Below are positions 8,796-41,288 of a stretch of 64,000 nt of DNA, piece after piece. The stretch comes from Chiloscyllium plagiosum. Lineage: Eukaryota. Positions within the stretch are counted from its first letter, which is position 1, and each line of letters opens with the position of its first letter. The notes under the pieces were generated by a model. It was not told the origin of the DNA and ran no database searches. It worked only from the letters and a program-made list of their open reading frames with translations. The DNA is taken from the NCBI RefSeq assembly GCF_004010195.1, contig NC_057713.1, forward strand, positions 39,051,555 through 39,115,554, written 5' to 3'. The translations under genes and the position numbers were made by a program.

Positions 8796-8948
<153 letters not shown>

Positions 8949-9887: not shown

Positions 9888-10345
9888 AAAAAAGCAGTTC
9901 AGTTTTGACTTCAAAATGAAGGTTCCATGTCTCAGTTCAGAATAATCCAGTGCTCAGTCACAAGAGAGAACAATTTCTCCTGACAGAACAATCAACTCAG
10001 TTCAGGGGAATTCAACCAGTGACATTAGCAGAAGCGGTTTCTACTCTATGGAACTTACAAGCCAAAGCAGGTAGAATAGGAATTAAATTGTTAGAATTGA
10101 GAAAGTTTAGTTTCTCAAAATTATGATGAACTCATGCTAGCAGACTCAGAAAGGAATTGTAAAAGTGCCTCCAATTCCAAGGAAAAGAAATTGGGAAAGT
10201 TAATTCAGTAAAGACTTAATGAGTTGAGATAGAAGTAAAAGTTCCTCTTTCGCTGGAATGGAGTGTCTGTAACAGATAGTGTTGGAAAACGGGTTGAAAC
10301 TGTTTTATTCTGCTTGTTAAGATGTTTCCATCTGTCTTCTATATA

Positions 10346-11098: not shown

Positions 11099-11722
11099 TT
11101 GAGAAAGGTTTCATAAAAGCAGCACACTTTCTCCAATAACAAGTTCCCACCACCACAGCGCTTTCGCCTATCAAAATTATTTTCACAAAATCAAATTTTT
11201 TTTATTCCATCATGGGCATTATTGGCATTTGTTCCTAATTCCTAAATACTATTGAGATTCATAAATTTATACAAATTTTCAATTTTTTAAAAATCATTAC
11301 AGATTTACTCCAAGCAATAGGAAACTAGATTGCAAACAGAATCAGGGACTTTGATTTCTCCCCCCACTAGGCAAGGGAAGTGTGTCACAATTTACCAATT
11401 GAAAAAATTGCTTACTCAGCACAGATTGGGACATGAATCTAGATTGTGTCAAAAAACATCTTCCTTATTAAATGCTCAAATGTTCGGATTTAATGCTTAT
11501 AAAACTCAAAATAATATAACACTAACCATCTGCCGATCATATGGTTTTGTGTAACAGCACAAGAAAATTTATTGTCACTCTGTTCCTTGGTTTGGTAGTT
11601 AAAAAATAATGTTTTGTTTATATTCTGTCCCCTTCCTCATTTAAAATGATTGAGATGTCAAGATGTAGATGCAGTTCAAAATAATACAACACTGCTTCAA
11701 AATCTTAAGGAGGTCCTATTTA

Positions 11723-11950
<228 letters not shown>

Positions 11951-12772
11951 CTATTAAAACAAAATATTCAAGGAAATTGCTGTCATCTTTAAATGTTAGG
12001 CGTGACAAAAATCTGACATAGATGATTGCTTATCCAGCATTCCTCTCACATAACTTCAAGATCAGAGAAAAACATTAAACTGAGGTATTCATGCAACAAT
12101 AAAACAGCACACTAACTAAAGGAGGAACAGTTCTCAAAGGCACTGAGGGGTTGGTTACTCTACAAACATAATAACCAGGCTGGTAAATTTGTTGAGCTGT
12201 TATTATAAACAGGTCATAGTCACTTAGTCATAGAGACGTACAGCATGGAAACAGACTCTTCGGTCCAACTCGTCCATGCCGACCAGCTATCCCAACCCAA
12301 TCTAGTCCCACCTGCTAGGACCAAGCCCAAATCCCTCCCTAATCGGATACCCATAGTGAAAGTGAAGAAAAATAAGATTACAAAAGTGCTAAATACGGTT
12401 GGATATTGTAAATGAATGCAAAATGAATGAATTTAAATGAATATTTAAGCTAAGACAGTATAAATATTTTCATCAAAGACAATCTCATTTAAAATGTGAT
12501 TCATTCCCAAAGATCAAAGTTCTGTGTATATTCACTTAAAATAAGGAAACTATTCTACCACCAGATGCACCACCTGACACAGTGGTTTGTTTAGATCAGT
12601 ATTTCTATTCAAAGCCATCCAATGTTTATTGAACAGAAATTTTCTCCATTCCCCTTGCCAGTGGAAAATACAAACTTTGGGAAGATTTTTAATGTAAGGT
12701 AATGTAATGTAGACTCTCCAGAGTACCAAAAGGAAGAAAGTTTCAGGCTGATCCATGCAGCATAATTATACG

Positions 12773-13098
12773 GGGAGAAACTGAGGACTGCAGATGCTGG
12801 AGATCAGAATCGAGAGTGTGTTGCTAGGAAAGCACAGCAGGTCAGGCAGCATCCGAGGAGCAGGAGATTCGACTTTTCAGACATAAGCCCTTCAGCAGGA
12901 ATGAGGCTTGTGGGCAGGGGCTGAGAGATAAATGGAAGGGGGTGGGGTTTGGGGGGTGGAAGGTAGCTGAGAAAGTGATAAAGGTGAGGGAGAAGGCGAT
13001 AGGTTGGGGTGGGATGGGTCGGAGTGGTAATGGACAGGTCGGGAGTACGCTGCCGAGTTGGAGGCTTGGGACTGGGATACTGTGGGAGGAGGGGAAAT
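12773..13098 (-). mobile_element. Penelope-type terminal repeat, degenerate hammerhead core
   Basis: Homologous to 39640-39930 in the opposite orientation; shorter relatives at ~3827-3918, ~18800-18886, ~19490-19608. Confidence 0.75.
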
Positions 13099-13749
13099 GA
13101 GCATAATTATATGGGACATATTGTTTAATCTGCGATTTTTTATATAATGTGTACGTGAATTGAACCCAAAATCATTGGGAAAGAGAGAGTTTAAAATCCT
13201 GAAACTAAAATAAAATTGACTAAAAGTATAAATTTTAAAAATTTTTTTAGACATTTTAAAAAATTCAACTGCAAATCAACAAAAGATCCATTAAATTCAT
13301 TTTCTGTAAAATTATGAATGTTGTTCCTTCATTGAGCAGGAGAAAGAAACTTCAACTGCCTCTCAAAAGCATTGCAGTTGCAACTTTTCTTAATAATAGT
13401 GATCACAGAAACTGATTAAAAATAGGAAGAAACCTCAACTGCAAACAATGAACTGTGTCTATTGCTGAATTTGGGGCTCCTTGCTATGTACTGACCTATA
13501 TTAGAACAAACTAGCAATCTTAGCCAAGAATTTCCATAGAATTACTCTTCAAAGGTTACTTTAATTACAACAGAATAGGTAGGCATTGGATTCCAAATTG
13601 TGCAATTTTCTTCTCAACTTCCTAATAAATGTCAGGATATATACATGTGTTTAGAGAAACGTTTGGTTATATGCTGCAAGAATAACATGAGAAGAAAACA
13701 ATTAAACATTTTCAACTAATGATAACCAAAAATAATATTTCAAAATTAA

Positions 13750-14378
13750 TTTGGTATGCTTTCCTTTATTGGTTAGAGTATTGAGTACAGGGGTTGGGAG
13801 GTCATGTTGTGGCTGTACAGGACATTGGTTAGGCCACTTTTGGAATAATACATGCAATTCTAGTCTCCTTCCTATCGGAAGGATGTTGTGAAAACTGAAA
13901 GAGTTCAGAGAAGATTTACAAGCATGTTGCCAGGATTGGAGGATTTGAGTATAGGGAGAGGTTGAATATGCTGGGGTTGTGTTTCTAGAACGTCAGAAAC
14001 TGAGGGGTGACCTTATAGAGATACATAAAATCATGAGGGGCATGAATTGGATAAATAGACAAAGTCTCTTCCTTGGGATGGGGGCGTCCAGAACTAGAGG
14101 GCATAGGTTTAGGGTGAGAGGGGAATAAGAGACCTAAGAGGCAACTTTTTCACATAGAAGGTGGTACGTGTATGGAATGAGCTGCCAGAGGATGTGGTGG
14201 AAGCTGGTACAGTTGCAACATTTAAAAGGCATCTGGATGGCTATATGAATAGGAAGGGTTTGGATGGACATGGGCCAGGTGCTGGCAGGGGGGACTAGAT
14301 TGGGTGGGGATATCTGGCTGGCATGGACGAGTTTGCCCAAAGGGTCTGTTTACACACTGTACATCTCTATGACTCTAA
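13750..14378 (+). mobile_element. CR1/HER1-type LINE 3' fragment
   Basis: Typical CR1 3' sequence ending TACATCTCTATGACTCTA; absent from the duplicate at ~38160-38180. Confidence 0.85.
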
Positions 14379-14772
14379 TGCTGATGAAAAACTTTGACTA
14401 GTCACTGCTGCGATGAAAATGTTACCGTTTGTACACCTAAGGATCAAACTGCATCAATGCTCATCTGTTAAACTGAGTTTGACTGACTCCAGGAGTATTC
14501 TATTTCATGTACAACACATTTGCCATTAATTCAATTTATGGCAAAGTAACAGCAACTTTACTCATCCATGAAATAATATCCTGATCACTTGAGAATTGTG
14601 CATCACATCAACTGAAACAAATAAAACATGTGATGTTTACAGAAACCATACAAGTCAGCCACTTTATTAAATATCATGAAGAAGTGAAGAAAAATAAGAT
14701 TACAAAAGTGCTAAATACAGCTGGATACTGTAAATGAATGCAAAATGAATTTAAATGAAGGAAAAAACTTTA

Positions 14773-15081
<309 letters not shown>

Positions 15082-15296
15082 TTAGCTAATGGTGAGGTGA
15101 AATCATGAAGTGCACTTGTTCAGATCTACAAGCTTTTAGTAAATGCAATTAACGGACCCTCTGAACAACCAAGTAAGAAAACAGCTTAGAATAAGTGAAA
15201 ATTCAAGAACTAAATTTTTGAGTCATTCAATGGCATAAGAACAAAAATGTACTCCAATATACATATTATGTGCAAATTTTCAAACAAGCAACCCCC

Positions 15297-15570
15297 AATG
15301 TGGTGGCTCAGCTGTTAGCACTGTTGCCTCACAGCGCCAGGGACCTTGGTTCGATGCCAGTCTTGGGTGACTGCCAGTGCTTGTGTGGGTTTCATCCGGC
15401 TGCTCTGGTTTACTCCTGCAGTCCAAAGATGTGCCAATTAGGTGGATTGGCCATACTAAACTGCCCATAGTACCCAGGCAAGGTAGATTAACTATGGTAA
15501 AGATGGGGAAAGGATCGGTATGGTCTTGATGGGTAACATGGTCTCTATCTGCACTGTACGGATTCTACGT
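15297..15570 (+). mobile_element. Degenerate HE1-type SINE (partial copy at ~38942-39190)
   Basis: GTGGCTCAG..TTAGCACTGTTGCCTCACAGCGCCAGGGACC. Confidence 0.75.
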
Positions 15571-17455
15571 TGTCTCAGTCAAAGCAGAAGCTGAATTAAA
15601 TTTCATATTTGGAATCACCCAGTTTGCAGTTGAAACTCCAACACAAGATGTCAGCAGTAATCCATTATGTCAACTTGCGTCTGAATTTTGCATCTCACCA
15701 ATTCAGGAAATAAGCCCCTTGAATCTGGTCCGCCATTCAGTGAAATCATGACAGACCCGAAAAATCCTCAATTCTATATTCTTGCCTTTTCCATGTAACC
15801 CTTCATTCACTGATTAAAAATCTATTCATCCAAGTCCTGAATATACTTAATGATCCAGCCTCAATAGCTTTCTGCAGTAGAGAATTCCACAGATTCACTC
15901 CCCTCAGAGAAAAAAATCCCTTTTCATCTCCAATTTAAGTTCGTGATCTCTTATTCTTAGATTATGTACTCTTGTCCTAAACTCTCTGCACATGCACGTG
16001 TGCAGAGATACCTGCACATCCGCATGCAGTGACTCCAATGTTCTGCGCACCACAATTGGCACGCTGACGCAGTTCACAGCACTGACTTCCGATTCTGGAA
16101 ATTGCTTCCACACACTGTCCTTGGAGGTCTGTGCAGAAGAGTAAACAGAGGGAACTCTTCCTCTCAAGTCTGCAAAGAATCTTGTATGTCCAATAGGTCG
16201 CTTCTCATTCTTTTATTTTCCAGAGTACAAGCCCAATCTACTCAGACTCTCCTCATATGACAGTCCCTCCATCAACTGAGTGAACCTTCTCTGGATTGTC
16301 TCTAATGCCAGTATATCTTTCCTTCGATAAATGGCCAAAAGCTCCTCATATTATTCTAATTATGGCATGATTAGTGTCTTTTGTAGTTTTATACTTCACT
16401 CCCTTTGAAATAGCAGGCAATATTTCATTTGTCTTCCCTATTACCTGCTGAACTTAAATGCTAGCTTTTTGTGATTCATGGACGAGGACTCCAAACTCTA
16501 ATTGTGGCTCATCTCTTGTTACAGTATGCCACCCTAAAAATGCACTCCTTATCCCAACTCTCTATACGTTATCAATACACTGTCAATACTAATGTACTAC
16601 TTCCAATACTGTGGGCTCCTTTACTGGTTTTACATGTACATTGGAGACAAATGCCCACCATTTTCATGCAACATGCCCAGGGTTGTTATGTGGCTGCAAA
16701 TCACAGGAAAAATTACAAGTCAAGTGATGGTTAGAACAAATATGACGGACATGAGCATGTATCAGTGAAGAGATCAAGGACCAAAATGATCCACAAAAGC
16801 GAAGGTGCTAAATTATTTCTTGTATTCCTATTCAGCCAGATGAGAAGGATTGCATAGTTGTTTTTGTTTGAAGAGTTGAGAAATTGAGTATCTTAGGCAA
16901 TATTTGTTCCGAAACCAAAGCTATTATCAAAGAATTTGCTATGATCTATTTGTGAAATTGTACTGTATGTAAATTACTTAGACAATAAAACATCTCTTTG
17001 AACCAGCTTTTGGTCACCTGTCGTAATATGTGCTTATGTGTCTCAGCATTTGTCACAGGTCAGTGAGGTCTAACTAGAAGGAATTCCCAGCACGATGAGC
17101 TGAATGTTCTTCTCCGGTGTTGTACAGTACGATGACTGAAGTGTCACCTTAAATCAGAAGCAACAAACACAGCTCAAGTTTCTATAAGTTCCTGGAACAA
17201 AACCTTTTTAATTTGGGAGGCAAGGGTATTGGCTAGGTCTCAGCATTAGTTATAGGCATTCACAACCATTTATTCATATAGAATCAATCCAAGAATCAAT
17301 GATTCACCTTTTGGACTCACTTGCCAAGTTTTCATAAGCAATTCGCAAATAATTTTCTAAATCATAACATACTAAACTAACTGGGAGAAGAAAGAAATTC
17401 AAGTCCCAAATGTCAGGAAAGACTTTCAGCTTTATAGTGTAGCTTCAGAGCTTAC

Positions 17456-17500
17456 CAAAAACCATCCTCCATATTGCTGGATGTGGTCTGGTGAAAGGAC
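17456..17500 (-). CDS. PTDSS1: Phosphatidylserine synthase 1, coding exon 3
   Basis: (G)PFTRPHPAIWRMVF(G); 45 nt; tttttcAG / GTAAG. Confidence 0.95.
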
Positions 17501-17624
17501 CTGAAAAATTAAAGGGAATATCCTTAAACAACATTGCGTGAATAAACAAATTATTTCAGAATGTGGAAAATAAAATGCAAGAAATGTGACCAATCACAAT
17601 TCTCACTTGTAACAAACAACTTAC

Positions 17625-17716
17625 CATTAGGAAATGCTAAAACACTTACAATTAGAAAAAAGAACACCACGGAAAGAACCCCCTTCCATATATTGTCTTC
17701 CGGACTTGAATCATCC
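17625..17716 (-). CDS. PTDSS1: Phosphatidylserine synthase 1, coding exon 2
   Basis: [31 protein letters not shown]; 92 nt; AG acceptor and GTAAG donor; phase consistent. Confidence 0.96.
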
Positions 17717-18011
17717 CTAGATGTAAAAATAATTGCAGGATTTGTCATATCAATGCATCGGTCATACATAAAATTTCAGTTATAAAAAATATTCATTTTA
17801 CAATCCATTCGCAAAAATGTGTAAAGTCGAAAGCGGGCTGTGTACCGCGGGGGTGGGAGATCCACCTGAGACATATATCCCAAACCAGCAAATCATTAGC
17901 TTGGAAAATGCTACATTATCAAGCAGGCCTAGCAGCAGAACTCGCCTGACACACATGCACTGATATGGAAAGAGTCAGCTGTTAAATAGCAGAGCCGGAT
18001 ACAACCAGTAC

Positions 18012-18190
18012 CTGGTAAAAGCGAAATACATGACACTAACGATGGTGAAAGTGAGCAGGGTGATAGTGTGAGGTTTGTAGAAGAAGTCGATGGTGATATC
18101 CTCCACTTGCTGCTCGTTGATCATTCGGAAATGCAGTTTATAATTCACATCATCCTTGCTGATTGTCCTGCTGCCTGTACTGGACGCCAT
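18012..18190 (-). CDS. PTDSS1: Phosphatidylserine synthase 1, coding exon 1 (ATG at 18190)
   Basis: Translates [60 protein letters not shown], matching the vertebrate PTDSS1 N-terminus; 179 nt; GT donor at 18011-18010. Confidence 0.96.
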
Positions 18191-18529
18191 AGCTGCGCCG
18201 TTCCGCTTCCCACTGCCAGCAGCAGCCGAGAGACTCCACCCAAACACTCTGCGGGGGAGGGGGGGGAGAGAAATCAGCTCATCCTCAAATACAAACAACC
18301 TCCTCAGGACAAAACGGAAGGACATTTATCAGACATTAAATGGCAAATTATTTAAAACAAATCTGGAATATTTTGCATAGAGATGTTGTTGATAGCAAAT
18401 CTAAAAGAGATTTGTACATGTCTCTCCTCTTTTTTTGTGATGGACTATTCCATTCTGGTAAATGTTACAATTTAGAACGTCCTTGGTGCACGTGGGGGTA
18501 CGGGAGCAGCGCCAGAAAATTTGCAGACA

Positions 18530-19470
18530 CGTCCTAACCCAGACAGAGACACACCTCCTAACACAGACAGACAGAGAGATGCTTCCTACCCAGACAGACA
18601 GACAGACAGAGAGAGAGAGAGAGAGAGAGAGACACCTCCAAACCCAGAGACACTTCCTACGTTAGACAGGAAGAACAGAAACACACCTCCTAACGCAGAC
18701 AGAGAGAAATAGAGACCTCCGAACCCAGACAGATAGACAGACACATCTCTTCATCCAGACACCTAACCGAGAGAGAGATTTACTAAGCCAGATACCTTCT
18801 TAAGAAGGGCTTATGCCCGAAACGTCGATTCTCCTGTTCCCTGGATGCTGCCTGACCTGCTGCGCTTTTCCAGCAACACATTTTCAGAGCAGACACCTTC
18901 TTACCCAAACAGAGAGGAAGAGAGATACACAAACATTGTAACCCAGATACTCAGTCTGCCAGAGTGATACCTCCTACCCCAGCCACACAGTCAGAGCGGG
19001 AGAAAGAGAGACACACACACTTCCTAACCAAGATAGAAGGAGATGCACCCTAGCCCAGGATATTCAGGACATAAAGAGATATATTTACTAATCTAAACAG
19101 AAACAGAAAGTGATATCTTTACTCAGACCAACAGGCCATAAACAGAAACGTTCTGAACTAAGGCAGAGAGATGTCTCTCAAAACAGACACAGAGGCATCA
19201 GCTAACCTGGATCAACAGCACAAAGAGACAGTGGACATTCCTAACCCAGCCGAGCAGGACACACAGAGAGACATCTCCCAGCCAACTCTACCAGGAGGGA
19301 GAAAGAGATAGCTCCGAATCCATCTTGAGTCTCCTAGAATGAGAGTGTCCTGAATCTCAGCTGTAGCAGATGAGAAAGAGAGGCCTTCATAACTAACCCA
19401 GCAGGACACAGAGTGGAGAGAGAAAGAGAGGCCTACTAAGCTTGACAAGAGAAAGAAATAACTCCCCAGC
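18530..19470. repeat. Degenerate purine-rich tandem region (CCTAACCCAGACAGAGAGA-like), duplicated at ~40960-41970
   Basis: Repeated cctaacccagacag motifs and (AG)n tracts. Confidence 0.75.
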
Positions 19471-20227
19471 CTGTGTGGAGCAGCATGGATTAGGGATTAT
19501 GTCCGAATCGCCGGCTCTCCTGCTTCTCGGATGATGCCTAACATGCTGTGCTTTTCCAGCACCATACTTTTTGACTCTGATCTCCAGCATCTGCAGTCCT
19601 CACTTTCTTCATCCATAACCAGGAAAAAAGCAAATGGGATGTTGGCATTTATTTCAAAGAGAATGGAGTAGAGAAGAAGGGAGGTTTTGCACAAACTATA
19701 CAAGGCACTAGTTGGACCATAGCTGGGCTACTGGGAAGTTATGGGACTCTCATCTGAAGAATGATATCCTGGTTTTGGAAGCAATCCAGCAAAGGTTCAC
19801 TCAGCTGATACTAGGGTATGAAAGACTGTCTTTAAGGAAAGGCTGAGTAGGTTATGCCAGTACTCAGTGGAATTTAGAAGAATGAAAGGCAACCTTACTG
19901 AAATGTTACAAGATTCTTAAAGGACTCAAGAGGGTAAATGTGGAAAGATTGTTTAACCTCGTTGGGAGAGGCTGGGCCCAGAGGGCATGATCTCAACAAG
20001 GGGCTTAAAACAGGGATGTGGAGGATTTTCTTTCTCGAAAGGGGCAATTATGCTGTGGAATTCTTTATACCAAAAGGCTTTTGAGGCAGAGATATTAAGT
20101 ATATTCACATGATTAGAGATACCAAATATATTGTACTAAATTTAAGTGAATCATGAGTTGAGGGGGAAGGCAGCAAAGTGGAACTGAGGGTTACGAGATG
20201 AACGATGACAAAGTAAGTAGTGAATCA

Positions 20228-20745
20228 GCGGGGGTACAATGTGCCGTACTGCGGAGCTGCAGCGGGAGGACCATGTGCCGTACGGCGGAGCTGCAGCGGG
20301 AGGACCGTGCCGTACGGCGGAGCTACAGCGGGGAGGGGGTGGTCCATGTGCCGTACGGCGGAGCTGCAGCGGGGGACCATGTGCCGTACGGCGGAGCTGC
20401 AGCGGGAGGACCATGTGCCGTACGGCGGAGCTGCAGCGGGGGAATCCATGTGCCGTACGGCGGAGCTGCAGCGAGGGACCATGTGCCGTACGGCGGAGCT
20501 GCAGCGGGGGACCATGTGCCGTACGGCGGAGCTGCAGCGGGAGGACCATGTGCCGTACGGCGGAGCTGCAGCGGGAGGACCATGTGCCGTACGGCGGAGC
20601 TGCAGCGGGAGGACCATGTGCCGTACGGCGGAGCTGCAGCGGGAGGACCATGTGCCGTACGGCGGAGCTGCAGCGGGAGGACCATGTGCCGTACGGCGGA
20701 GCTGCAGCGGGAGGACCATGTGCCGTACGGCGGAGCTGCAGCGGG
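20228..20745. repeat. CpG-rich minisatellite, 34-bp unit, about 15 copies
   Basis: Unit ACCATGTGCCGTACGGCGGAGCTGCAGCGGGAGG; CATG recurs at 20547, 20581, 20615; internal palindromes GCCGTACGGC and GCTGCAGC. Confidence 0.97.
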
Positions 20746-21075
20746 TACTGTCCTGTTTCTCTTCCTCCCGGGAGCAGTGCTGACTCGGTATTGACTCTGT
20801 GTTTCCCGGTCGGAATGATTAAGGTGAGTACTGGGAGGACTGTTGTGTGCACTATCCGGTGCTTTGACCCTACTCTCTCCAGGTACTCCAACCCAAGTAT
20901 TTAATCCCTGTTACCGCTCCGATAAACTCCCCCAGACTTACATCTCCTTCCGAAAGTGGGCTGCTGCCCACACATGGACGGAATCCTCCAGCTGCTGAAT
21001 AATCGGCGCCTGATAAAGGCCTCAACGGGTTTTTAACAGCTTTCCCAACTCGTTTCTGTTCTCCTGCCGCTTCTT
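20746..21075. promoter_or_regulatory. Probable shared PTDSS1/MTERF3 promoter region with candidate non-coding first exons
   Basis: Unique CpG-enriched sequence between two divergent genes; plus-strand donor AAG/GTGAGT at 20824; minus-strand donor GAT/GTAAGT at 20941; PTDSS1 and MTERF3 are head-to-head in mammals. Confidence 0.55.
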
Positions 21076-21889
21076 TTAAATGAGTACAATTTAGAACATG
21101 AACAGTATGTAGTCTTGGGGACATTTGGTCACTCGAGGATATGCCAACTCCCTTCAGAACAACCCATTCGATCCCATTCCCCTTCCCAATCACTGTAAGG
21201 TCACACAGTGCCTGTTTAATCTCCTTTAAAAATCATTGATGGTCTCTATTTCCAACATCCTGATGGGCAGCATCTTCAAGGTCATTTGTACTTGTTGCTT
21301 TAAAAAGGGTTGTTCCTCACTTTCTCCCTGTTTGTCTTACCCAAAGCTTTAAATTCTGTGTTCCTCAGCCCTTGCACCATCGCCGAGTTGGGGACAGTTT
21401 TTCCTTGTCTACTTTATTCAATCTTGTCACAGTCTTTTATAGCTCTTACTAAATCTCCTTTGTTTCAGGAGAACAACATCCAACTTTTCCAAACTAACCT
21501 TGCAGTTAATATCACTCATCCATGCAGCCATTTTGGTAAGTTCCCCCTGCACCCTCAACTGTGATCACAAGAACTAGTTGCATACTCTATAATCTCTCCG
21601 TCTGGAAACTTATTCTTTAGAAATTTAAAAAATAAGTTCTCTGGAATTTTTCTTTGAGCAGACCAGAGCCAGTTGCAGCAGATCGGGAAGCATGAGTTCA
21701 TCTGGTTGAGGAGAGCACAGGATTTCAAGGGCTGAGTGACTTTGTAACCTTGTGTTGTACTCTCACACCCGACAGGATCACTTCATCCTCTCTACCAACT
21801 GCCATTTTTCACGCAAACTCTCTTTGCTCAAGTGTTTTTGAGCAGACCCAATTATTCTCAGGATATAGTTTGTTTTTTAATCTCTCACT

Positions 21890-23683
21890 ATGGCATGTAA
21901 GAAAAGTACAGCAAAACGTAAGCATGTTACACTTACAATATCAGAAAAGGTTGAAATCATAAATAAACTAGATCAAGGTTCTTCAGTAAAAATGTTGTGT
22001 GAGGCATATGGTGTGGGAATCACAACAATTTATGACATCAAGAAGCAACGTGAAAAGCTATTTAAATTCTGTGCTGAAAGTGACACAGTTCAAGGAATTA
22101 GTGAGCGTAAAACACTGCATCGTGCTAAGTCTGCTGACCATGATGATGCCCTGTATAAATGGTTCAGACAACGTCGTAGTAAGGGGCTCCCTATTTCGGG
22201 GACAATGCTTATGGAAAAGGCCAAACAATTTCATAATGATATGAAGATTAATTCTGTGTGCGAGTACTCTCAAGGTTGGTTGCAGAGGTTTAAACATAGG
22301 CATGGAATTCACCTTAAAGAGACCAGTGAAAAGAGCTCTGCAAATACAGAGGCTGTCAAATGTTACATAACTGAATTTGCAAAGTTGATGAAAGATGAGG
22401 ATCTTAGCCCTGAACAAATATATAATGTGGATGAGACAGATGTTTTCTGGAGATGCTTGCCACGACACAGGCCTGTTGGTCCAGAGGAAATGATGGTACA
22501 TGATTACAAAGAATCAACAGAAAGACTAACTGTGCTTGCATGCACAAATGCTGCTGGAACACATAAATGTAAACTTTTGGTTGTTGGTAAAAGTCCTAAG
22601 CCTCGTGTTTTCAAAGGGATGAAAATTATGCCGGTGCTTTATGAAGCTAATAAATGTTCGTGTGTTACCGAGGAAATATTGAGTGACTGGTTCCATAATC
22701 ATTTTGTTCCAGAGGCTCGTACACACTGTCAAAAGGTTGGGTTGGCTGCAGATTGCAAAATTGTTCTTCTTTTAGACAACTGCACACCTCATCCGCCTAG
22801 AGAGCAATTAGATGCTGACAATGTCTTCCCTACCTATCTACCCACTAGTTGTACATCTTTAATTCAGCCAATGGACCAAGGAGTTATCAGGTCAATGAAA
22901 AGTCACTACAGGAAGAGTTTTTTACGTCGTCTTGTGAGCAGCTACAATACTGGTGGCATTGATGCCTTTAAGACTGCCCTCAGTCTCAAAGATGCTATAT
23001 GGTGTTTGACAAATGCATGGGACAGTGTAACGAGGAGAACCTTACAAAATGCATGGCGTAAGTTGTGTCCTGAAATTATATTGAATGACGAGGACATGGG
23101 GGAAAGCTCTGACGCCTTTAGTTTAAGTGAAACCAAGGCAATGGTGACTGACCTCTTGTGTTGTACCAAGCAAATGGGAAGTGACTTGGATGAGGAAGAC
23201 ATTTTGGCGTGGTTAAATGGTGAAGATAATACTTCAGTTGTACAACAAGTAACAGATTCAGAGATAATTGAGGGCGTTTTACACTACAAGTCTGAGGATA
23301 GTGACAACAGCGATGAAGAAGACAATGTTACTGGGGATAAGATTACCTTGGAAGAGGGAATCAGTCTAGCTTCCCGCTTCATTCGTTTTCTTGAGCAACA
23401 AAGTTTTGTAAGCCAGCAAGATGTAATGCACATACACAGGATCCAAGAGAAGTTGATAAATGAGCAGCCAAAACACATGAAACAAATGAGGTTGCAGCAA
23501 ATGTTTGATGAAGTTGGAAAATCCTTTGCGCACACACCATTAGCATCACTGAGCTCGATCCCGTCAACCAGTGGACTCGATGACACAAAGGACCCAGAGT
23601 TGACTGCTTTTGCCATCAATTATCATCCACTCTCTCCTACACCTCTTCTAAATATTGGTGAAATAAAGCAATGTATGGAATAA
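21890..23683 (+). CDS. Intact pogo/Tigger-family transposase-derived protein (Jerky/TIGD-like; CENP-B-type HTH plus DDE domain), 597 aa, single exon
   Basis: KRKHVTLTISEKVEII N-terminal HTH; second HTH with YSQGWLQRFKHRHGI; catalytic motifs IYNVDET (D181), LLLDN (D296), IQPMDQG (D329) give DD32D spacing; no stops or frameshifts. Confidence 0.93.
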   Translation: MACKKSTAKRKHVTLTISEKVEIINKLDQGSSVKMLCEAYGVGITTIYDIKKQREKLFKFCAESDTVQGISERKTLHRAKSADHDDALYKWFRQRRSKGLPISGTMLMEKAKQFHNDMKINSVCEYSQGWLQRFKHRHGIHLKETSEKSSANTEAVKCYITEFAKLMKDEDLSPEQIYNVDETDVFWRCLPRHRPVGPEEMMVHDYKESTERLTVLACTNAAGTHKCKLLVVGKSPKPRVFKGMKIMPVLYEANKCSCVTEEILSDWFHNHFVPEARTHCQKVGLAADCKIVLLLDNCTPHPPREQLDADNVFPTYLPTSCTSLIQPMDQGVIRSMKSHYRKSFLRRLVSSYNTGGIDAFKTALSLKDAIWCLTNAWDSVTRRTLQNAWRKLCPEIILNDEDMGESSDAFSLSETKAMVTDLLCCTKQMGSDLDEEDILAWLNGEDNTSVVQQVTDSEIIEGVLHYKSEDSDNSDEEDNVTGDKITLEEGISLASRFIRFLEQQSFVSQQDVMHIHRIQEKLINEQPKHMKQMRLQQMFDEVGKSFAHTPLASLSSIPSTSGLDDTKDPELTAFAINYHPLSPTPLLNIGEIKQCME

Positions 23684-25278
23684 CTTGTTCCCTTTAAGTC
23701 ATCATCAACATTTTGATAAAGTACTTTGAAACTGGACGCATGAATAATCATATTTGAATAAGTAAAATAACATTTATAAAGTAATAACAGAATTGATCAG
23801 TATTTTATGTTTCATGAAAATTTTTATATCCATGATGTTTTCCAATTCTATTACTTTTGATTCAGAATTCTAATATCCATTATCCAGAAATGGCTTGGTC
23901 CCAAACATTGTAGACTCGAAAGGTTGCAGTATGGCTTAATCAGAGCTTTATAAGGGTTCAGCATAAATTCATTTTTGTATACTTCTGTTTATGAAGATAA
24001 AGATCTGATATGCTTTGCTAACCACTCTCTCAATATGTCTGAAACCTTCAATGATATGTACATATGTACATGATTTTCTCATTGTTCCTGCACAATTAAG
24101 TCTTTATTGCCTGTTATCCGTATGCAAACATGAATCACCTCTCACTTCTGCATATTAAATTCTATCTTCCAATTGTTTGCTTAATTATGTCCTTGTTAGT
24201 GGTATCACCGTTGGCCACAGTTCTTTTCACTTTCCCGCACTGTATTTATCAGAGTGCTGTGGTTTCAGCCATTGAGTCCTGGGGTAACACTACAGCACAT
24301 GCAGGTTGGAGTTTCTTTCTGACCCTTAACCATCTTTATACCCATGTAACCACTGTCCTTTTCAATTTTGTTAACAAGTACATCAGACCTTTCAAAAGTC
24401 CATTTACACAGTCTGCATCAAGGAACCTTAGTCAAACATGATTTACTTTTAACAAAGCTAATGTTTATTAACCCAAAATTTTCCAAGTACCAATGATTTT
24501 GCATTTTTGTCTCAAAAAGATTCCCTGCTGTCAATAGATTTTTTGTTGAGCCTGCAGTTATTGGGTTCTCTCCCTATTATTAAACATTTCTAAGTCTCCA
24601 ATTTTCTAGCAGCACCCCGGTATATGGTAAGGATTCAATGATTGTGGCCAGAGCCTGGGTGATTTTCACCATTACTTCTATCATAAACCTAGAGGCTGTG
24701 CTCCCTTTTAGTATGAGATTTGTCATAGAGCCCTGAAAGCCACAATCAACATAGCTATTCTAAAGATTGCCCATTCTCATTGCTGCCTGGCAGCTGCGTC
24801 CCTTTTTATGTTAAAAATGTATGAATCGGTCTTCAGAGAGCACCTCCCATCACTGTCCTACTGACATCGACAGCCCCCTCCACTACATTGACAGAGCTCC
24901 ACTCTAACGGGTGATCAATCTTATCATTCAGTGCTCTAGAGCCTCCTGTTGACACTTTAGTCACCATCTTCAATTGGTTGGTGATGGAGACACTGGCCTT
25001 CTGCTTAAAACTCGTGTTCAACATCAGGCGTATTTGGTGGGGTCAGGACCCGGAAATGTACCCATGCCAGAGTCGCAATCCCAGAATGAAAATTCAACCC
25101 ATGGTCTACATTTCATATTTTGATCTACTACTTAAAATCTGTAAGTATCCAAAGTGTTTTAATGCTTTGAAACACTTAATTTTAACTTTAACATAACTTC
25201 TACCGCAATTCTAATGAATACAATTACTGTTTACTCATTACATTTATTGTTTACAGGATCATGTTAAATTGAACAAAA

Positions 25279-25609
25279 ATGTCTTCACTGTGCCACCGCA
25301 TTTGTTACCGATGGTCTTCATTGAGAATTATTGGTCTAGTTTGGTCTTCAAAGCAAGAAATAAAAGTGGTACCTGTAGCATCCTATAGTCTTCAAAGTCG
25401 CTTTGGTTTAGATGCACGTCAATGCCTTTTGACTCAAAAACTCTGGATGTTGAAAAGGTCTGACTTGAGTTCTTCAGCATCAAGTTTGCCACCAAGTAAA
25501 GAAGATGGCAATGGATACCGGTTCACAGAAAGCTGTATTTTGCTAAACACAGGTCATAACTATGGCAAAACAGAACTGCCTTGTGTGGTGAAAGATGTAC
25601 AATCTGGTG
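25279..25609 (+). CDS. MTERF3: Mitochondrial transcription termination factor 3, first coding exon (exon begins at 25257)
   Basis: Acceptor ttacAG at 25255-25256; Ser/Arg/Leu-rich presequence-like N-terminus; GTAAGC donor at 25610 in phase 1 joins in frame to the next, clearly recognisable exon. Confidence 0.8.
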
Positions 25610-25674
25610 GTAAGCTATGTTTTGTTTTGTTGAATGCATTGAATATGTATATTGACATACATTTAATACATTAT

Positions 25675-25846
25675 AGAACAACTTGATGCTGACAGTTTCT
25701 TCTTCATAGATCACTCTACTAGTTGCACATCTTTAATTCAGCCAATGAACCAGGGTTGATCCATTAGATCAATGAAATGCCATTGCAAGAATCTTTCAGC
25801 ACCTTCATGTGAACACATACAGGACAATGGTGTTGGTGCTTTTTAC
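25675..25846 (+). pseudogene. Decayed fragment of the neighbouring transposase DDE region (second copy ~27153-27560)
   Basis: GATGCTGACA...ACTAGTTGCACATCTTTAATTCAGCCAATGAACCAGG...TCAATGAAA aligns by eye with 22801-22970, with indels. Confidence 0.8.
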
Positions 25847-26186
25847 CTGGGTTCATCTTCAATTAACATTCAGCTGGCTGGGTCCTAAACTCTGGAACCC
25901 CTCCCTAAACCTCTCTACCTTTGTCTTCCTTTGATCAAGTCTATCTTACTGGCACCTTGAGTGGCTCAGTGTGAAATCTTATTTAATAGTCTGAAGCTCC
26001 TTGGAATATTCTATTCTGTTAAAGGTGCCTTTTAAATGCCTTTGTAATAGTTATCCATAATTGAAATGTGCTTTTAGGTTTTTATCTTGTGGTACCTCAG
26101 TCAAATATAAATTTATTTTTCTGATAAACTGAAGTCTTAAACACCCGTAGACTACTTGACCAACTGAGGTCAGCACCACATAGTCT

Positions 26187-26394
26187 AAGATTAGAGTAGT
26201 GTTGGAAAAGCATAGCAGGTCAGGCAGCATCTGAAGAGCAGTAAAATCGATGTTTTGGGCAAAAGCCCTTCATCAGGAATCTCAAAACGTTGATTTTCCA
26301 GCTCCTCAGATACTGCCTGACCTGCTGTGCTTTTCGAGCACTACTCTTATCTTGACTCTCATCTCCAGCATCTGCAGTACCCAATTTCGCCTAT
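26187..26394. mobile_element. Older fold-back Penelope-terminal-repeat insertion
   Basis: Imperfect inverted arms; TSD CACATAGTCT at 26177-26186 and 26395-26404; empty site at ~28210. Confidence 0.85.
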
Positions 26395-27211
26395 CACATA
26401 GTCTTAAGCCTGTTTTCACCTGGGATTTAGATATATATTGCTATCCCTTCCATGTAATTGTGATGTGACTGTGTTCAAACTACAGACCAAACCTATGCAG
26501 TGCACACATGAGGTAGCAACATTACAGATATATAGATCCTGCGTGATACTTGTAATGTCTCTAAATTGTATGAATGAGTGATGCACTACATTGTACTTTT
26601 ATCGAGCTGAAAGAAATTACATTGATTAGTTCCAGTAACATTCAATGGAGCTATATATGTCTCATAATGGAGACATATATAACACATTCAAAAGTAAGAC
26701 CTGTAAGTATGTAAAGTATCACATTAGATCTGAGAAGTTCTACAACATTGACCACAAATAAAGTGCCTAATGATTGTTAGGAAAGTAGGAAGGTTAGCAG
26801 ACCACAACAGCAAGGTACTGCGGATGCTGGAAATCTAAAACGAAAACAGAAACTGCTGGAAATAAACAGGTCTAGAATCAAAAGGAAATTCGGACAGGAG
26901 TGGGGGAGAACGGATACTCAATTCTGAGGAAGTCTGCTAACAAATTACAGAAGGGCATTAATAAACTTGCAGAGTGGAAAAATAATTGGCAAATCAATTT
27001 CAACACCGATTATATTTTCTAGGAAAAATAAGGAACTATGGCAAAACAGAACTGCCTTGTGTGGTGAAAGATGTACAATCTGTCGGTAAGCTATGTTTTG
27101 TTTTGTTAAATGCATTCAATATGTAAATTGACATATATTCAATGCATTATTGAACAACTAGATGCTGATCTTCTTCATAGATCACTACACTAGTTGTACA
27201 TCTTTAATTCA

Positions 27212-27426
27212 TGATTCGGAGATGCCGGTGTTGGACTGGGGTGTACAAAGTTAAAAATCACACAACACCAGGTTATAGTCCAACAGGTTTAATTGGAAGC
27301 ACACTAGCTTTCGGAGCGACGCTCCTTCATCAGGTGACAATCACCTGATGAAGGAGCGTCGCTCCGAAAGCTAGTGTGCTTCCAATTAAACCTGTTGGAC
27401 TATAACCTGGTGTTGTGTGATTTTTA
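27212..27426. mobile_element. Fold-back Penelope-terminal-repeat insertion with target-site duplication
   Basis: Perfect 86-bp arms 27252-27337 / 27341-27426 with 3-nt loop; TCTTTAATTCA duplicated at 27201-27211 and 27427-27437; empty site at ~25730. Confidence 0.9.
27342..27376 (+). ncRNA. Minimal hammerhead ribozyme motif (mirror copy on minus strand at 27302-27336)
   Basis: CAC-CUGAUGA-A-GGAGC-guc-GCUCC-GAAA-GCUA-GUG: both catalytic boxes, stem I CAC/GUG, stem II, self-complementary AGCU in place of stem III. Confidence 0.75.
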
Positions 27427-27752
27427 TCTTTAATTCAGCCAGTGAACCGGGCTGATCCATTAGATCAATGAAATGTCATTGCAAGAATTTTTCTGCATCT
27501 TGATGTGAACACATACAGAACGATGGTGTTCGTGCTCTTAAGAAGGCTTCAATATCAAATTGACCTGAGTTCATCTTCAATTAATATTCAGCTGGCTGGG
27601 TCCTAAACTCTGGAAGCCTTCCCTAAACCTCTTTACCTTTGTCTTCCTTTGATCAGGTCTATCTTACTGGGACCTTGAGTGGCTCAGTGTGAAATCTTAT
27701 TTAATAGCCTGAAGCTCCTTGGAATATTCTATTCTATTGAAGGTGCCTTTTA

Positions 27753-28076
27753 GTGGGCGGCACGGTGGCACAGTGGTTAGCACTGCTGCCTCACAGCGCC
27801 GGAGACCCGGGTTCAATTCCCGCCTCAGGCGACTGACTGTGTGGAGTTTGCACATTCTCCCCGTGTCTGCGTGGGTTTCCTCCGGGTGCTCCGGTTTCCT
27901 CCCACAGTCCAAAGATGTGCAGGTCAGGTGAATTGGCCATGCTAAATTGCCCGCAGTGTTAGGTAAGGGGTAAATGTAGGGGTATGAGTGGGTTTCGCTT
28001 CGGCGGGGCGGTGTGGACTTGTTGGGCCGAAGGGCCTGTTTCCACACTGTAATGTAATGTAATCTAATCTAATCTA
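27753..28076 (+). mobile_element. HE1-type SINE, full length
   Basis: A box TGGCACAGTGG, B box GGTTCAATTCC, (TAATG/TAATC)n tail; empty site in the sister tandem unit at ~26022-26040. Confidence 0.9.
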
Positions 28077-29275
28077 AATGCCTTTGTATCAGTTATCCAT
28101 AATTGAAATGTGCTTTTAGATTTTTATCTTGTAGTACCTCACTCAATTTATTTTTCTAATAAGGCTAAGTGTTAAGCATCAATAGACTAATTGACCAAGT
28201 GAGGTCAGCACACAAAGTCTAAGCCTGTTTTCACCGGGGATTTAGATATGTATTGCTACCCCTTCCATGTACTTGTGATGTGACTGAATTCAAACTACAG
28301 ACCAAACCTATGCAGTGCACACACATGGGGTAGCAACATTACAGATACATAAATCTTGTGTGATACTTGTAATGTCCCTAAATTGTATGAATGAGTGATG
28401 CACTATATTGAACTTTTATCAACCTAAAAGAAATTAAATTGGTTAGTTCCTGTAACATTCAGTGGAGCTATATATGTCTCATAATGGAGTTTCCTGATTA
28501 CATACTTGCAAGTCTTACTTTTGAATGGTGTTAAGTATCACATTAGATCTGAGAAGTTCTACAACATTGACCACAAATAAAGTGCCTAATGATTGTTAGG
28601 AAAGTAGGAAGGTTAGCAGACCACAACAGCAAAGTACTGCGGATGCTGGAAATCTAAAACGAAAACAGAAACTGCTGGAAATAAACAGGTCTAGAATCAA
28701 AAGGAAATTCGGACAGGAGTGGGGGAGAACGGATACTCAATTCTGAGGAAGTCTGCTAACAAATTACAGAAGGGCATTAATAAACTTGCAGAGTGGAAAA
28801 ATAATTGGCAAATCAATTTCAACACCGATTATATTTTCTAGGAAAAATAAGGAGGTCACTAATTACTTGGAAGGTGCAGTCTACGTAAGGTAGTGGTATA
28901 CTGTAAAGGGGGTCAGGGAGAATAAATACAACAATTGCTAAAAGTTGTGCCAAAAGTTAGCTCAGTCATTAAAAATAAAGTACAGCAAACACCAGTCTTT
29001 ATTTCATGAGGGACAGAATTGAAAAGTAGGGAAGCTATGCTCAACCTATATCAAACCTTGCTTAGACTACACTGAGTGTACTGCATAATGTTCTGGTCAT
29101 TATATTATGTAAATTGCTACACAGCAATAACTTGTATAACATCTGTAATTTAATGAACAGGCACTTCACAGGAGCATTATAAACAACGTATGTCACAGAG
29201 ACAGGTGAGATATTGGGTCAGGTTCAGTACTCAGAAGTGTCTTCTCAGAGAAAAATAGAGAATGACTGTAAAGAA

Positions 29276-31032: not shown

Positions 31033-31972
31033 AATAATTAAGAAAAATCCATTTCTCAAAATAGAGACCTTCCATATGAACCATAAAATACAACCTTTAA
31101 ACTGAACTTTTCCCGTTTATATTTATGGTTTGCTTTCATTATGCATTATTCTTGTTTCGTAAGTCAATTCTCCTTCAGTACTTCCTCGATATCCAGGATT
31201 TTCTGGACTTGGTCCCACCCTTCACTTTTACAGGAATATGTTGGTCCTGTGCTTGCACTATTTCCTTTTTGAAAGTCTTCTACTGCTCTCATGTCAAACT
31301 TCCTACAAGTTGCTGTTCCAAAAGGGATAGTACGGAAGGGTGATACTTGGGAGGGAAAAATGATGAACAAGAGTGAGGAAAATTTAGGAGAAAAAGGCTG
31401 GAGACAAATAATCAGAAGAGAACACATATTATCAGAAGCAGATGAAAATTAGAAAACAACTTTTTTTTTACATGTAAGCAATGCTACAGGAGATCAACAG
31501 TACATTTGAAAACAAGTGATAAGGGAGCTTTCCCGTACAATTGGAGCTGTGATCACACCAATGAAGAGAATTCTACCATAACTCAGCACATGGCCTGCTT
31601 GAAACACAAAGATGTGCTTCAAGAAAAAGGTGTTCAGTTCAATCAACTAAAAAACAGAAAAAAAACGTTTAATGAACTCAAATAACTTTTTAAACTTTCT
31701 TAATATGCCATGAAATTGTAAATAATTTCAATGTCCCTCATGGAGGTATTAGAACTGTTAACTATTTCACAATATACTTGCTAACTTTCACAAGCTAAAA
31801 CTTGGATGTCTACCAGCTGAATGACACACCTTGATAAAATATTCAACAGATGAATTCAAGGTTTTCTATTGGTTGATATTAATGTAATCTACTAAGTTAA
31901 AGCTTACTGGATATACAAGAAACATTTTACCGACATGAAACCTGCATGTAATGACATACATGTTGATAGAGT

Positions 31973-32143
31973 ACAGCTGGAACTGACAACCGGAAGCTGC
32001 AGAGACAAACCACTATAAATGCCGGAGGAAACATCACAGAAGCACTTCACAGGAGGCTCCCAAGCACTGAGGATGTCACCTAGACGGGGGACGAAACATC
32101 TGCAACACAAATTCCCAGCTCGGCGAACAGAACCACAACACAT
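31973..32143 (+). mobile_element. Solo Penelope-type terminal repeat (same family as 62961-64000)
   Basis: Near-identical to 63885-64000; hammerhead core at 32067-32100. Confidence 0.85.
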
Positions 32144-32844
32144 CCACAAATACTGCAAAGGTTAAAATGTAAGGGCTGACGTTGGCAGAATTAGCAGAGT
32201 GCTAATCTCAGAGAGTTATGGGGCTGGAGCAAACTAAGAAGTCAGGAGGAAATGAAATCATGGAGGAATTTGAAAACAAGGATGAAAATTTTAAAATCAT
32301 AATGATGCTTGATCAGAAGGCAATGAAAATCAGCAAACAGAATGGTGACAGAGAAATGGAACTTACTGCAAGTTAAGATACGGGCCTTAGAGTTTTAAAT
32401 AAGCTCAAGTTTATGTGGGAGATTAGCCAGGAGTGTACTGGAAGAGTGGAGTTTGCAGATAACAAAGGCAAGAAGAAGGGATTTCAAGATCATTTCAGAG
32501 AAGAATGAAATCAATGAAGTAACATGTTGTAGAAATGCAAACTAGACATCAGATTTGTATTTATTTCATCGTATATTAAAAATAAGCAGTGAAATTTGAT
32601 AAGACTACATCCTTCACAGTTACATGAACATTAATTCCTGCAGAGACTGTTGCTATCCTTATAACTACAAGATTTTCAACCAAGTATAGTATCTATGTTG
32701 AAGGTTCCATACAATTTAAAACACCAGCTTTCATTCTCCCTCCATTCCACCCAGACTTGACTTAAAATTAATTAATAACTACCAAAATATGCTTCAATTC
32801 TCATCAGGTTTTCATCCCATCAGTTCAAAGCCCCACATTCAATA

Positions 32845-33040
32845 GAGTTGAGAGTGTGTGCTGGAAAAGCACGGCAGGTCAGGCAGCATCCGAGGAGCAG
32901 GAGAATCGACCTTTCGGGCATAAGCCCTTCATCAGGAACACCTGAAAGTCGATTCTCCTGCTCCTTGGATGCTGCCTATGTTTTTCCAGCACCACACTCT
33001 CGACTCTGATCTCCGGCATCTGCAGTCCTCACTTTCTTCA
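32845..33040. mobile_element. Fold-back Penelope-terminal-repeat insertion (truncated counterpart at 3827-3918)
   Basis: Inverted arms; CTGATGAAGGGCTTATGCCCGAAA on the minus strand. Confidence 0.8.
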
Positions 33041-38603: not shown

Positions 38604-38876
<273 letters not shown>

Positions 38877-41254: not shown

Positions 41255-41288
41255 TTCCTGATGAAGGGCTTTTGCCCGAAACATCTAT
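41255..41288 (+). ncRNA. Hammerhead ribozyme core in a solo terminal repeat, stem III/I mutated
   Basis: CUGAUGA-A-GGGC-uuuu-GCCC-GAAA-CAUC. Confidence 0.55.

Follow-up and report, generated by a model that had tools for sequence, protein, structure and literature searches.

A Tigger-Type Transposase in the MTERF3 Leader of Sharks, Probably Retained as a Host Gene

The MTERF3 gene of sharks carries in its leader a Tigger-type transposase that serves as an alternative last exon and has probably been kept by selection as a host gene, with a product predicted to be a dimeric DNA-binding protein. The analysis was centered on a window of 64,000 nucleotides of Chiloscyllium plagiosum (the whole stretch of DNA examined, from contig NC_057713.1), and the features found in it are collected in Table 1.

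The Transposase Exon in the MTERF3 Unit

MTERF3 was confirmed as seven coding exons (25279-58417), and its divergent neighbor at ~18011..18190 on the minus strand is, from short motifs alone, the putative first coding exon of PTDSS1. The preliminary description had seen the transposase as nested in the 5′ region of MTERF3; the position was right, but the element is not merely nested, as it is spliced to the shared exon of MTERF3. Three GT-AG joints leave this exon in run X11, a presumed RNA run and the one run with the joint into the element, and the exon is also present in the RefSeq isoforms P0150 and P0207. A search of sequencing runs listed none registered as RNA, which counts neither for nor against this. 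Because the shared exon is joined to the element in some contigs and to MTERF3 in others, the transposase exon counts as an alternative last exon in the MTERF3 unit. Further upstream, the end of a leader exon matches the N-terminus MIK of the C. punctatum RefSeq isoform P0207. The DNA run X1 reads through 20750-21871 without a break and lacks the joints of the shared exon. In about 2% of a raw-read RNA run, 12 reads were found, mostly at 23487-24130, and none of them crossed the 21535-21662 joint. The X11 contig covers 21661-23737 and the X17 contig likewise stops at 23737, although contigs cannot fix the end of the RNA. Short ORFs of 4, 5, and 49 codons lie upstream of the transposase ATG. 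A transposase-MTERF3 fusion was considered and, for the transcript forms found here, rejected, since both ATGs lie downstream of the shared exons.

Table 1. Features of the transposase element and the MTERF3 5′ region in the window.
Feature	Position	Strand	Remarks
Upstream MTERF3 leader exon, 3′ end	20815..20823	+	ATG-ATT-AAG, then GT donor
CR1-like LINE relic, left of the interruption	21150..21584	-	minus-strand translation
Optional upstream leader exon, 3′ part	21239..21280	+	first 14 aa of isoform P0150, 2 differences
Shared non-coding exon within the CR1-like relic	21469..21535	+	donor joins 21662, 24932 or 25257
TA and eroded left terminal repeat	21583..21606	+	rank 109/7158 on the terminal-repeat matrix, weak
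Transposase-bearing alternative last exon	21662..23737	+	acceptor AG 21660-61; 3′ end 23737 or beyond
597-aa Tigger/Jerky-type pogo transposase ORF, paralog A	ATG 21890, stop 23683	+	internal stops: 0
Bipartite HTH DNA-binding region	21914..22318	+	Pfam CENP-B_N 9-60 and HTH_Tnp_Tc5 83-143
DDE_1 catalytic-fold domain	22430..23056	+	Pfam DDE_1 211-389; D181 (22430), D296 (22775), D329 (22874)
C-terminal helical hairpin, predicted homodimerizing	23339..23464	+	helices 487-502 and 509-529
PIP-box-like QMRLQQMF	23483..23506	+	residues 532-539; partial consensus match
Eroded right terminal repeat and TA	23908..23931	-	rank 11/7158 on the terminal-repeat matrix
CR1-like relic, right of the interruption	23930..24700	-	minus-strand translation
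Optional MTERF3 leader exon	24932..25140	+	joints in X11, one raw X21 read
MTERF3 first coding exon	25257..25609, ATG 25279	+	100% match to residues 1-110 of C. plagiosum MTERF3 P0204

Architecture and Ends of the Element

A check of the frame and its residues bore out the uninterrupted 597-codon ORF with D181, D296, and D329 that had been described before. The spacing of D296 and D329 is 32 residues (DD32D), and the combination of CENP-B_N, HTH_Tnp_Tc5, and DDE_1 in this ORF is the architecture of Tigger-family pogo transposases. The bipartite HTH region matched the CENP-B structure 1hlv of the PDB in sequence (E 1.5e-7) and in fold (TM 0.79, rmsd 2.3), and the DDE domain was predicted to be whole, its fold matching those of Mos1, Metnase, and Sleeping Beauty. 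The tail motif QMRLQQMF, first noted for its likeness to a PIP box, is in place, and its agreement with the consensus Qxx[ILM]xxF[FY] (PMC5371812) is partial only: M replaces the first F, and Q is changed to R in 2 of the 9 shark proteins.

The transposon extends over ~21585-23929. Its ends were ranked with a matrix of 18 ends from distant Tigger-like loci, taken from a metagenome scan with distant relatives only (25–45% identity) and no shark DNA; with ranks of 11 for the right end (TA at 23930-31) and 109 for the left end (TA at 21583-84) out of 7158, neither stands out alone. The best ungapped match between left and right ends was 13 of 25, the mode of 500 random pairs, a chance-level value that confirms the erosion reported for them. 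An inverted-repeat search gave nothing above chance at the ends of the element, which lack the TA duplication and undamaged terminal inverted repeats that mark an active Tigger. The minus-strand translations of the two flanks run on across the element (..ALIKP / EYATSS..), in agreement with the claimed interruption of a LINE relic, and resemble the C-terminal part of CR1 ORF2. The CR1 label is tentative, as blastn and tblastn searches with the flanks gave no second copy of that part in the window.

A Probable Shared Locus in Seven Shark Species

The orthologs found share 96–97% identity with the window protein in C. punctatum and Hemiscyllium, 84% in Stegostoma, 76% in Carcharodon, and 72–73% in two Scyliorhinus species, and the next-best match beyond them was 48% among the best 120 of 252 hits. 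A search of 50% representatives gave no further ortholog, the closest match listed there being ~46% over full length. In all seven species, the transposase and MTERF3 records are on contigs equal in size. Their accessions are adjacent or near in Hemiscyllium (..679679-80 and ..679681), S. canicula (..664895 and ..664896), and S. torazame (..324184 and ..324188), and the two are merged in one gene model in C. punctatum. The shared contigs give indirect support to an orthologous position across sharks and, with adjacent or merged records in four species, fixation at one locus, as had been supposed. Among the best 120 of 252 hits, no close ortholog was present for Cetorhinus, Mustelus, Heterodontus, Heptranchias, Pristiophorus, rays, or Callorhinchus; the MTERF3 proteins of these taxa are in the same database, and both loss and non-annotation are possible.

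A Reading Frame Under Constraint

A neutral simulation, which covers the species with an annotated ORF only and takes the window ORF as its root, kept all 7 tips free of stops in 0 of 2000 runs at each of three scalings. The 33 differences listed for X17 (16 synonymous and 17 non-synonymous) correspond to a pN/pS of 0.28–0.42 (p 0.0004–0.012), a value that derives from 40 of 115 rows of pooled contigs, probably mixing paralog B and alleles, and is not a between-order dN/dS. The available portions of the literature gave no usable value for neutral Ks between shark orders. Moreover, sharks show less variation at the columns conserved in 30 relatives (45 of 158, against 169 of 383; p 0.0007), also when Stegostoma is removed (p 0.0001). 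No indel was listed in the ORF in X17, X11, and X1, against 10–13 expected from the duplicated non-coding DNA of the window if its duplicate is correctly assembled, and between intact shark proteins every indel is in frame. Variable columns make up 25–31% of the DNA-binding domains and the C-terminal hairpin, 39% of the DDE core, and 51–61% of the linkers and tail. Constraint is moderate, as the transposase reaches 72–76% identity where MTERF3 of the same species reaches 83–84%.

Purifying selection is therefore seen in the shark ORF, with the exception of the zebra-shark copy. This protein is labeled LOW QUALITY, carries N296 and N329, and, relative to the background rate, shows 1.48 times as many private changes at conserved columns (0.53–0.56 in the others, none significant alone), so that the copy looks decayed or dead. 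Otherwise, the view of an old, immobile insertion with an ORF preserved by selection agrees with the chance-level ends, the simulation, and the pN/pS values.

The gene could instead be a passenger, that is, an old insertion that owes its transcription solely to its trapping of MTERF3 splicing and that is slowly decaying in genomes that themselves evolve slowly, with no selected protein function. The zebra-shark copy is degenerate, and the identity of the transposase is below that of MTERF3, both of which would suit a passenger, as would the lack of a basking-shark or smooth-hound ortholog among the best 120 of 252 hits and the view of Gao et al. (PMC7386202) that the whale-shark copy is a pseudogene. 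Nevertheless, such a relic should not have kept frames that no neutral run kept, nor show this pN/pS, spared conserved columns (p 0.0001–0.0007), and only in-frame indels between intact proteins, and both terminal repeats have decayed where the ORF has not. We regard this explanation as improbable.

A Predicted DNA-Binding Product

The intact DD32D triad holds for the window ORF and not, as first proposed, as a conserved feature. D181, D296, and D329 are intact in 8 of the 9 fetched shark proteins (bamboo, epaulette, white, and cat sharks), and the triad is D-N-N in the zebra shark and, by eye, in the whale-shark row of Gao Table S2, where a frame of 595 aa is kept. In catsharks, the residues beside the catalytic Asp drift from DNC to DSY or DNY. 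In the line of the zebra and whale sharks, at least, catalysis is dispensable; in the sharks with an intact triad, it may persist.

The C-terminal hairpin was modeled as a dimer with a score of 0.46 (best of 3 controls, 0.00), a contact agreement between runs of at least 92%, and a pLDDT of at least 69. In microbes, 21 of 30 solved pairs reached the mark used, as did 0 of 23 single chains; in eukaryotes, the figures were 17 of 29 and 0 of 30. The score may reflect memory of solved relatives, given that of the 7 eukaryotic pairs lacking an older solved relative, only 1 passed. The product is predicted to act, most likely, as a dimeric DNA-binding protein of the CENP-B/JRK kind and not as an active transposase.

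Domestication for a nuclease or recombinase activity, comparable to piggyMac or RAG1 and serving, for example, DNA repair or programmed rearrangement, appears unlikely. The triad retained in most of the proteins and the whole DDE fold, with its matches to Mos1 and Metnase, speak for it; the Asn at 296 and 329 in the zebra shark and in the whale-shark row mentioned above, the drift beside the catalytic Asp in catsharks, and a DDE core that varies more than the DNA-binding domains speak against it.

Two tandem paralogs were found in the bamboo and epaulette sharks (Hemiscylliidae). The 6 sites separating paralogs A and B in both genera are all within the first 77 residues, and the remainder is homogenized.

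Phylogeny and Relation to JRK

All nine shark rows form one clade, ((Carcharodon, Scyliorhinus),(Stegostoma, Hemiscylliidae)), with an SH-aLRT of 100 and following the species tree; in a more careful tree, the shark clade (5 rows) received 100/100. Both trees were built with LG+G4 without a mixture model, leaving out 12 and 25 of the 61 rows, respectively, and the whale-shark sequence, taken from the supplement of Gao et al., is in no tree or count. Among the best 120 of 252 hits, the nearest relatives belong to multi-copy Tigger-like families, with 9 records in the coelacanth and 12 in a damselfly. These multi-copy relatives and the intact Tiggers of Chiloscyllium (PMC9219625) would fit a young, active family inserted independently in each shark, but this is very improbable with one or two transposase records in each species, all located on the MTERF3 chromosome, a gene tree that tracks the species tree, ends at chance level, two alleles and not many in the DNA contigs, and intact shark Tiggers (Table S1 of PMC9219625) whose ORFs measure 306 and 560 aa and whose ends differ.

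That the gene is the shark ortholog of mammalian JRK can practically be dismissed: the NCBI name "jerky protein homolog," the DD32D spacing, and the label JRK-rhityp favor it, but the AU test rejects a clade of the shark gene and JRK (log-likelihood 303.6 lower, p 2.6e-107, LG+G4), and JRK clusters with elements from turtle, alligator, and coelacanth and with another shark gene (P0093/P0140). Named JRKL and TIGD proteins are neither in the trees nor among the best 120 of 252 hits, save for "TIGD2-like" labels in the hits, which are on the shark clade and on transposon-like relatives. Gao et al. (2020) classed the whale-shark sequence JRK-rhityp (XP_020373306.1) as a JRK pseudogene, in line with their treatment of cartilaginous-fish entries as pseudogenes of JRK (PMC7386202), and the text of their Fig. 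S5 places it outside the JRKL and TIGD blocks (PMC7386202). In the first 400 characters, JRK-rhityp matches the N-terminus of the shark gene by eye, and its length is 595 aa; from this portion it is very likely the whale-shark ortholog of the transposase gene at MTERF3. The candidate had been put forward as lineage-specific; it is separate from JRK, as the phylogeny showed, and its probable whale-shark copy was already in print as JRK-rhityp.

Proposed Origin and Function

We propose that a single insertion into the CR1-like relic preceded the split between Orectolobiformes and Lamniformes plus Carcharhiniformes, which dates to ~200 Ma or more. The element's own acceptor, 74 nt inside the left end, would have captured the MTERF3 promoter, and decay of the ends would have made the element immobile. 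Transcripts from this promoter would then give the transposase protein when they end in the element and MTERF3 when they skip it. The two HTH domains are predicted to bind DNA and the C-terminal hairpin to dimerize, and PCNA may be recruited through the PIP-like tail. Such a protein would likely bind dispersed relics of Tigger ends or other repeats in order to silence or organize them. In a more speculative version, to which we give little weight, galeomorph sharks would have independently recruited their own CENP-B-like chromatin protein and placed it under the MTERF3 promoter, where a splice switch made from a LINE relic would trade a mitochondrial regulator against a nuclear DNA binder; after duplication in the Hemiscylliidae, the DNA specificity would have been retuned, and in some lineages the intact triad may still cut DNA.

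An independent, shark-specific domestication would thereby be added to the pogo list, which in its published form recognizes none in cartilaginous fish (PMC7386202). The sharks also offer a natural series: the triad is retained in bamboo, white, and cat sharks, the whale shark has lost it but maintains the frame, the zebra-shark copy is in decay, and in the Hemiscylliidae the gene is duplicated, with an altered DNA-binding region in the duplicate. This series lets one ask what a host keeps a transposase for. The route to expression is a simple one, the capture of the leader exon of a housekeeping gene, and it is because of this shared MTERF3 leader exon that the C. punctatum transposase, modeled by RefSeq as MTERF3 isoforms X1 and X2, is named "MTERF3 isoform X1." Since bamboo sharks and catsharks are egg-laying animals already used in the laboratory, the function of the gene can be tested.

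Comparison With Known Systems

The shark gene resembles JRK in having CENP-B_N, HTH_Tnp_Tc5, and DDE_1, in the DD32D spacing, and in the domestication of a whole transposase. It differs in its transposon lineage and its locus, human JRK being at 8q24.3, and in contrast to the pseudogene label of Gao et al., the present data indicate an independent gene under constraint. With CENP-B, it shares the bipartite HTH region matching 1hlv, a pogo origin, and perhaps, on the dimer prediction, a homodimerizing C-terminal hairpin; CENP-B, however, derives from pogoR and not from Tigger and has lost a recognizable triad. Fission-yeast CENP-B-like proteins silence LTR elements (PMC5371812, PMC3424704).

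The Tigger-like families of the coelacanth (P0006/P0007), a damselfly (P0021), and Pseudophryne (P0013) are the nearest relatives (44–48% identity, same clade with 100/100), but they are dispersed, multi-copy records, whereas the shark gene is a single locus with eroded ends. In its gene structure, the shark locus resembles PGBD3 in intron 5 of CSB, also a selected intronic transposase with its own 3′ splice site that serves as an alternative last exon (PMC5381638). PGBD3 is a piggyBac element giving a fusion protein, whereas the exons trapped in sharks are non-coding, and the products are therefore either the free transposase or MTERF3.

Results

The transposase ORF in the 5' region of MTERF3 (paralogue A) belongs to a real, databank-annotated gene that has been misnamed. 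The preliminary description of an uninterrupted 597-codon frame with a complete DD32D triad (D181/D296/D329) and a QMRLQQMF motif was borne out on all three points. The protein contains CENP-B_N, HTH_Tnp_Tc5 and DDE_1 domains, and its AlphaFold model (mean pLDDT 70) matched the structures of the CENP-B DNA-binding domain and of the catalytic domains of Mos1, Metnase and Sleeping Beauty. The ends of the element are eroded, as had been described: left and right match at 13/25 positions, the same as random pairs (mode of 500 nulls, 13), and they rank 11 and 109 of 7158 against a terminal-repeat matrix from 18 ends of distant Tigger-like loci. Of the claim that a CR1 relic was interrupted, the interruption stood, both flanks translating as a single broken LINE-like frame on the minus strand; CR1 is our presumed label.

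Features of the window
Feature	Position	Strand	Remark
Element	~21585-23929		bounded by two TA dinucleotides
Transposase ORF	21890-23683		597 aa
QMRLQQMF motif	23483-23506
MTERF3 coding exons	25279-58417	plus	first exon 100% identical to C. plagiosum MTERF3 protein
PTDSS1 start	near 18190	minus	presumed from short motifs
Tandem segmental duplication	1983-20342 and 31174-42507
34-bp repeat, GC-/CpG-rich	20226-20745		15 copies, directly 5' of MTERF3 leader exon
34-bp repeat	42395-42498		3 further copies
Related-transposase relic	25672-25791		120 bp, right after MTERF3 first coding exon; 73% identical to 22798-22914
Local duplication	25558-28853		part of MTERF3 first coding exon and intron, 86-93% identity
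Palindrome	27247-27431		185 bp, within local duplication
Laminin-N exon, 215 aa	45382-46029	minus	domain search; presumably netrin-G-like
74-bp tandem repeat	46056-46898
N gap	47421-48118

In the contigs of X11, a run classed as RNA by automatic guess, the donor at 21535 was joined by GT-AG junctions to 21662 (within the element), 24932 (an optional exon) and 25257 (the first coding exon of MTERF3), at contig depths of 12.9, 6.4 and 12.1, a poor gauge of expression. The DNA run X1 was unbroken across 20750-21871. The joining of exon 21469-21535 to 25257 was independently present in C. punctatum RefSeq isoforms, which also include upstream exons with 3' ends at 20823 and 21280. A raw-read RNA run, sampled at about 2%, yielded 12 reads, mostly from the 3' end of the element; one spanned an MTERF3 joint and 0/12 the joint 21535-21662. 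The ORF is thus most plausibly an alternative last exon belonging to the MTERF3 unit. A transposase-MTERF3 fusion protein is not expected, since the shared exons lie 5' of both start codons. Separately, C. punctatum MTERF3 isoforms X3-X6 (P0150, P0201, P0202, P0207) read the first coding exon in a different frame before returning to the MTERF3 sequence, pointing to a frameshifted second copy of the exon.

The tandem segmental duplication (5.8% mismatch over 8843 columns, many indels) places within an MTERF3 intron a partial PTDSS1 copy, antisense to MTERF3, that appears to lack the first coding exon of PTDSS1. No second element was found in the window at the expected place, 42.5-50.3 kb, which holds unrelated DNA and an N gap instead. 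X1 and a further run, X17, carried two alleles over the transposase N-terminus, each at about half depth; therefore, a second copy likely exists but is missing from this assembly. Region 42500-50300, where paralogue B (the second tandem copy of Hemiscylliidae) was expected, is possibly mis-assembled.

Among the best 120 of 252 matches in the protein search, four shark clusters stood at 72-96% identity and the next-best match at 48%; C. punctatum had an extra second copy and Hemiscyllium two copies. Transposase and MTERF3 records lay on contigs of the same length, indicating one chromosome, in 7/7 species. Their accession numbers are next or close to each other in Hemiscyllium, S. canicula and S. 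torazame, both are merged into one gene model in C. punctatum (the transposases being named MTERF3 isoforms X1 and X2), and the agreement is at chromosome level only in Stegostoma and Carcharodon. Among the same 120 matches no close orthologue was found in Cetorhinus, Mustelus, Heterodontus, Heptranchias, Pristiophorus, rays or Callorhinchus. MTERF3 proteins of all these animals are present in the database, and the missing match may reflect absence, loss or lacking annotation.

In phylogenetic analysis, with JRKL and TIGD genes left out of both trees, the shark proteins were monophyletic and branched as the species tree (nine rows, SH-aLRT 100, 49/61 rows used; five rows, 100/100, 36/61 rows used in the second tree). 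Their neighbours were Tigger-like families present in multiple copies in coelacanth, insects and frogs. Mammalian JRK fell in a separate clade, together with elements from turtle, alligator and coelacanth and another shark gene, and a forced grouping of the shark proteins with JRK as orthologues was rejected (p-AU 2.6e-107). This other Jerky-like shark gene (P0093 in C. punctatum; P0097/P0140 in whale shark), in the clade from which mammalian JRK arose, is a candidate for another domestication. Long "jerky-like" ORFs were also seen in rodents and a lemur (P0024, P0027, P0032, P0038, P0043, P0045, P0060); the two placed in the trees, P0024 and P0032, clustered with skate P0019 apart from JRK, and these ORFs may therefore represent an unnamed gene of mammals or a family acquired by transfer.

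Purifying selection on the ORF, as previously proposed, was upheld, the zebra-shark copy excepted. A neutral simulation scaled to observed protein divergence, with indels uncounted and biased because only annotated frames were sampled, gave 3-6.5 stops per lineage and left all seven tips open in 0/2000 runs at each of three scalings. Among the 40 of 115 X17 rows listed, 33 ORF differences (16 synonymous, 17 non-synonymous) gave a pN/pS of 0.28-0.42 (kappa 1-5, p 0.0004-0.012), and the listed differences included no indels, against 10-13 expected from duplicated non-coding DNA. Sharks also varied less at columns conserved in 30 relatives (45/158 vs 169/383, p 0.0007). These results make a slowly decaying relic improbable, although transposase identity (72-76%) is below that of MTERF3 (83-84%) and the zebra-shark copy, flagged low quality, has N296 and N329 and does not spare the conserved columns (ratio 1.48, against 0.53-0.56 in the other sharks; no single value was significant).

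The least variable parts of the protein were the HTH domains and hairpin 486-542. Modelling predicts that this hairpin, which we take to resemble the CENP-B dimerisation domain, forms a homodimer (score 0.46 against 0.00 for the best control, contact agreement at least 92%, pLDDT at least 69), on a score whose mark was reached by 21/30 microbial and 17/29 eukaryotic pairs, by 0/23 and 0/30 single chains, respectively, and by only 1/7 eukaryotic pairs without a solved relative. All six sites at which paralogue A differs from paralogue B in both genera (6/6) lie within residues 3-77, a pattern compatible with gene conversion that spared the DNA-binding end or with selection that altered it.

Discussion

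The shark gene is apparently an undescribed, shark-specific domesticated Tigger-type transposase, and its domestication is likely. No description of it was found in the literature on pogo/Tigger/JRK domestication in sharks and cartilaginous fish or on MTERF3 with jerky, a scope mostly of open papers. Gao et al., 2020 (PMC7386202) lists the whale-shark protein as JRK-rhityp, classes cartilaginous-fish JRK entries as pseudogenes and excludes clades of <5 species; the available part of PMC9219625 lists other shark Tiggers, the MTERF3-locus gene not among them.

Retention for a nuclease role is unlikely, given the zebra-shark change of D296/D329 to Asn and the same two replacements, judged visually, in the whale-shark entry of Table S2 of Gao et al., though that table states DD32D. 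Both this role and slow decay are live rivals to a dimeric DNA binder, the reading that we somewhat favour. The shark protein would then act on repeats or chromatin in the manner of CENP-B and JRK. The gene has two unusual features: expression through trapping of the MTERF3 leader, and a duplication changing only the DNA-binding end.
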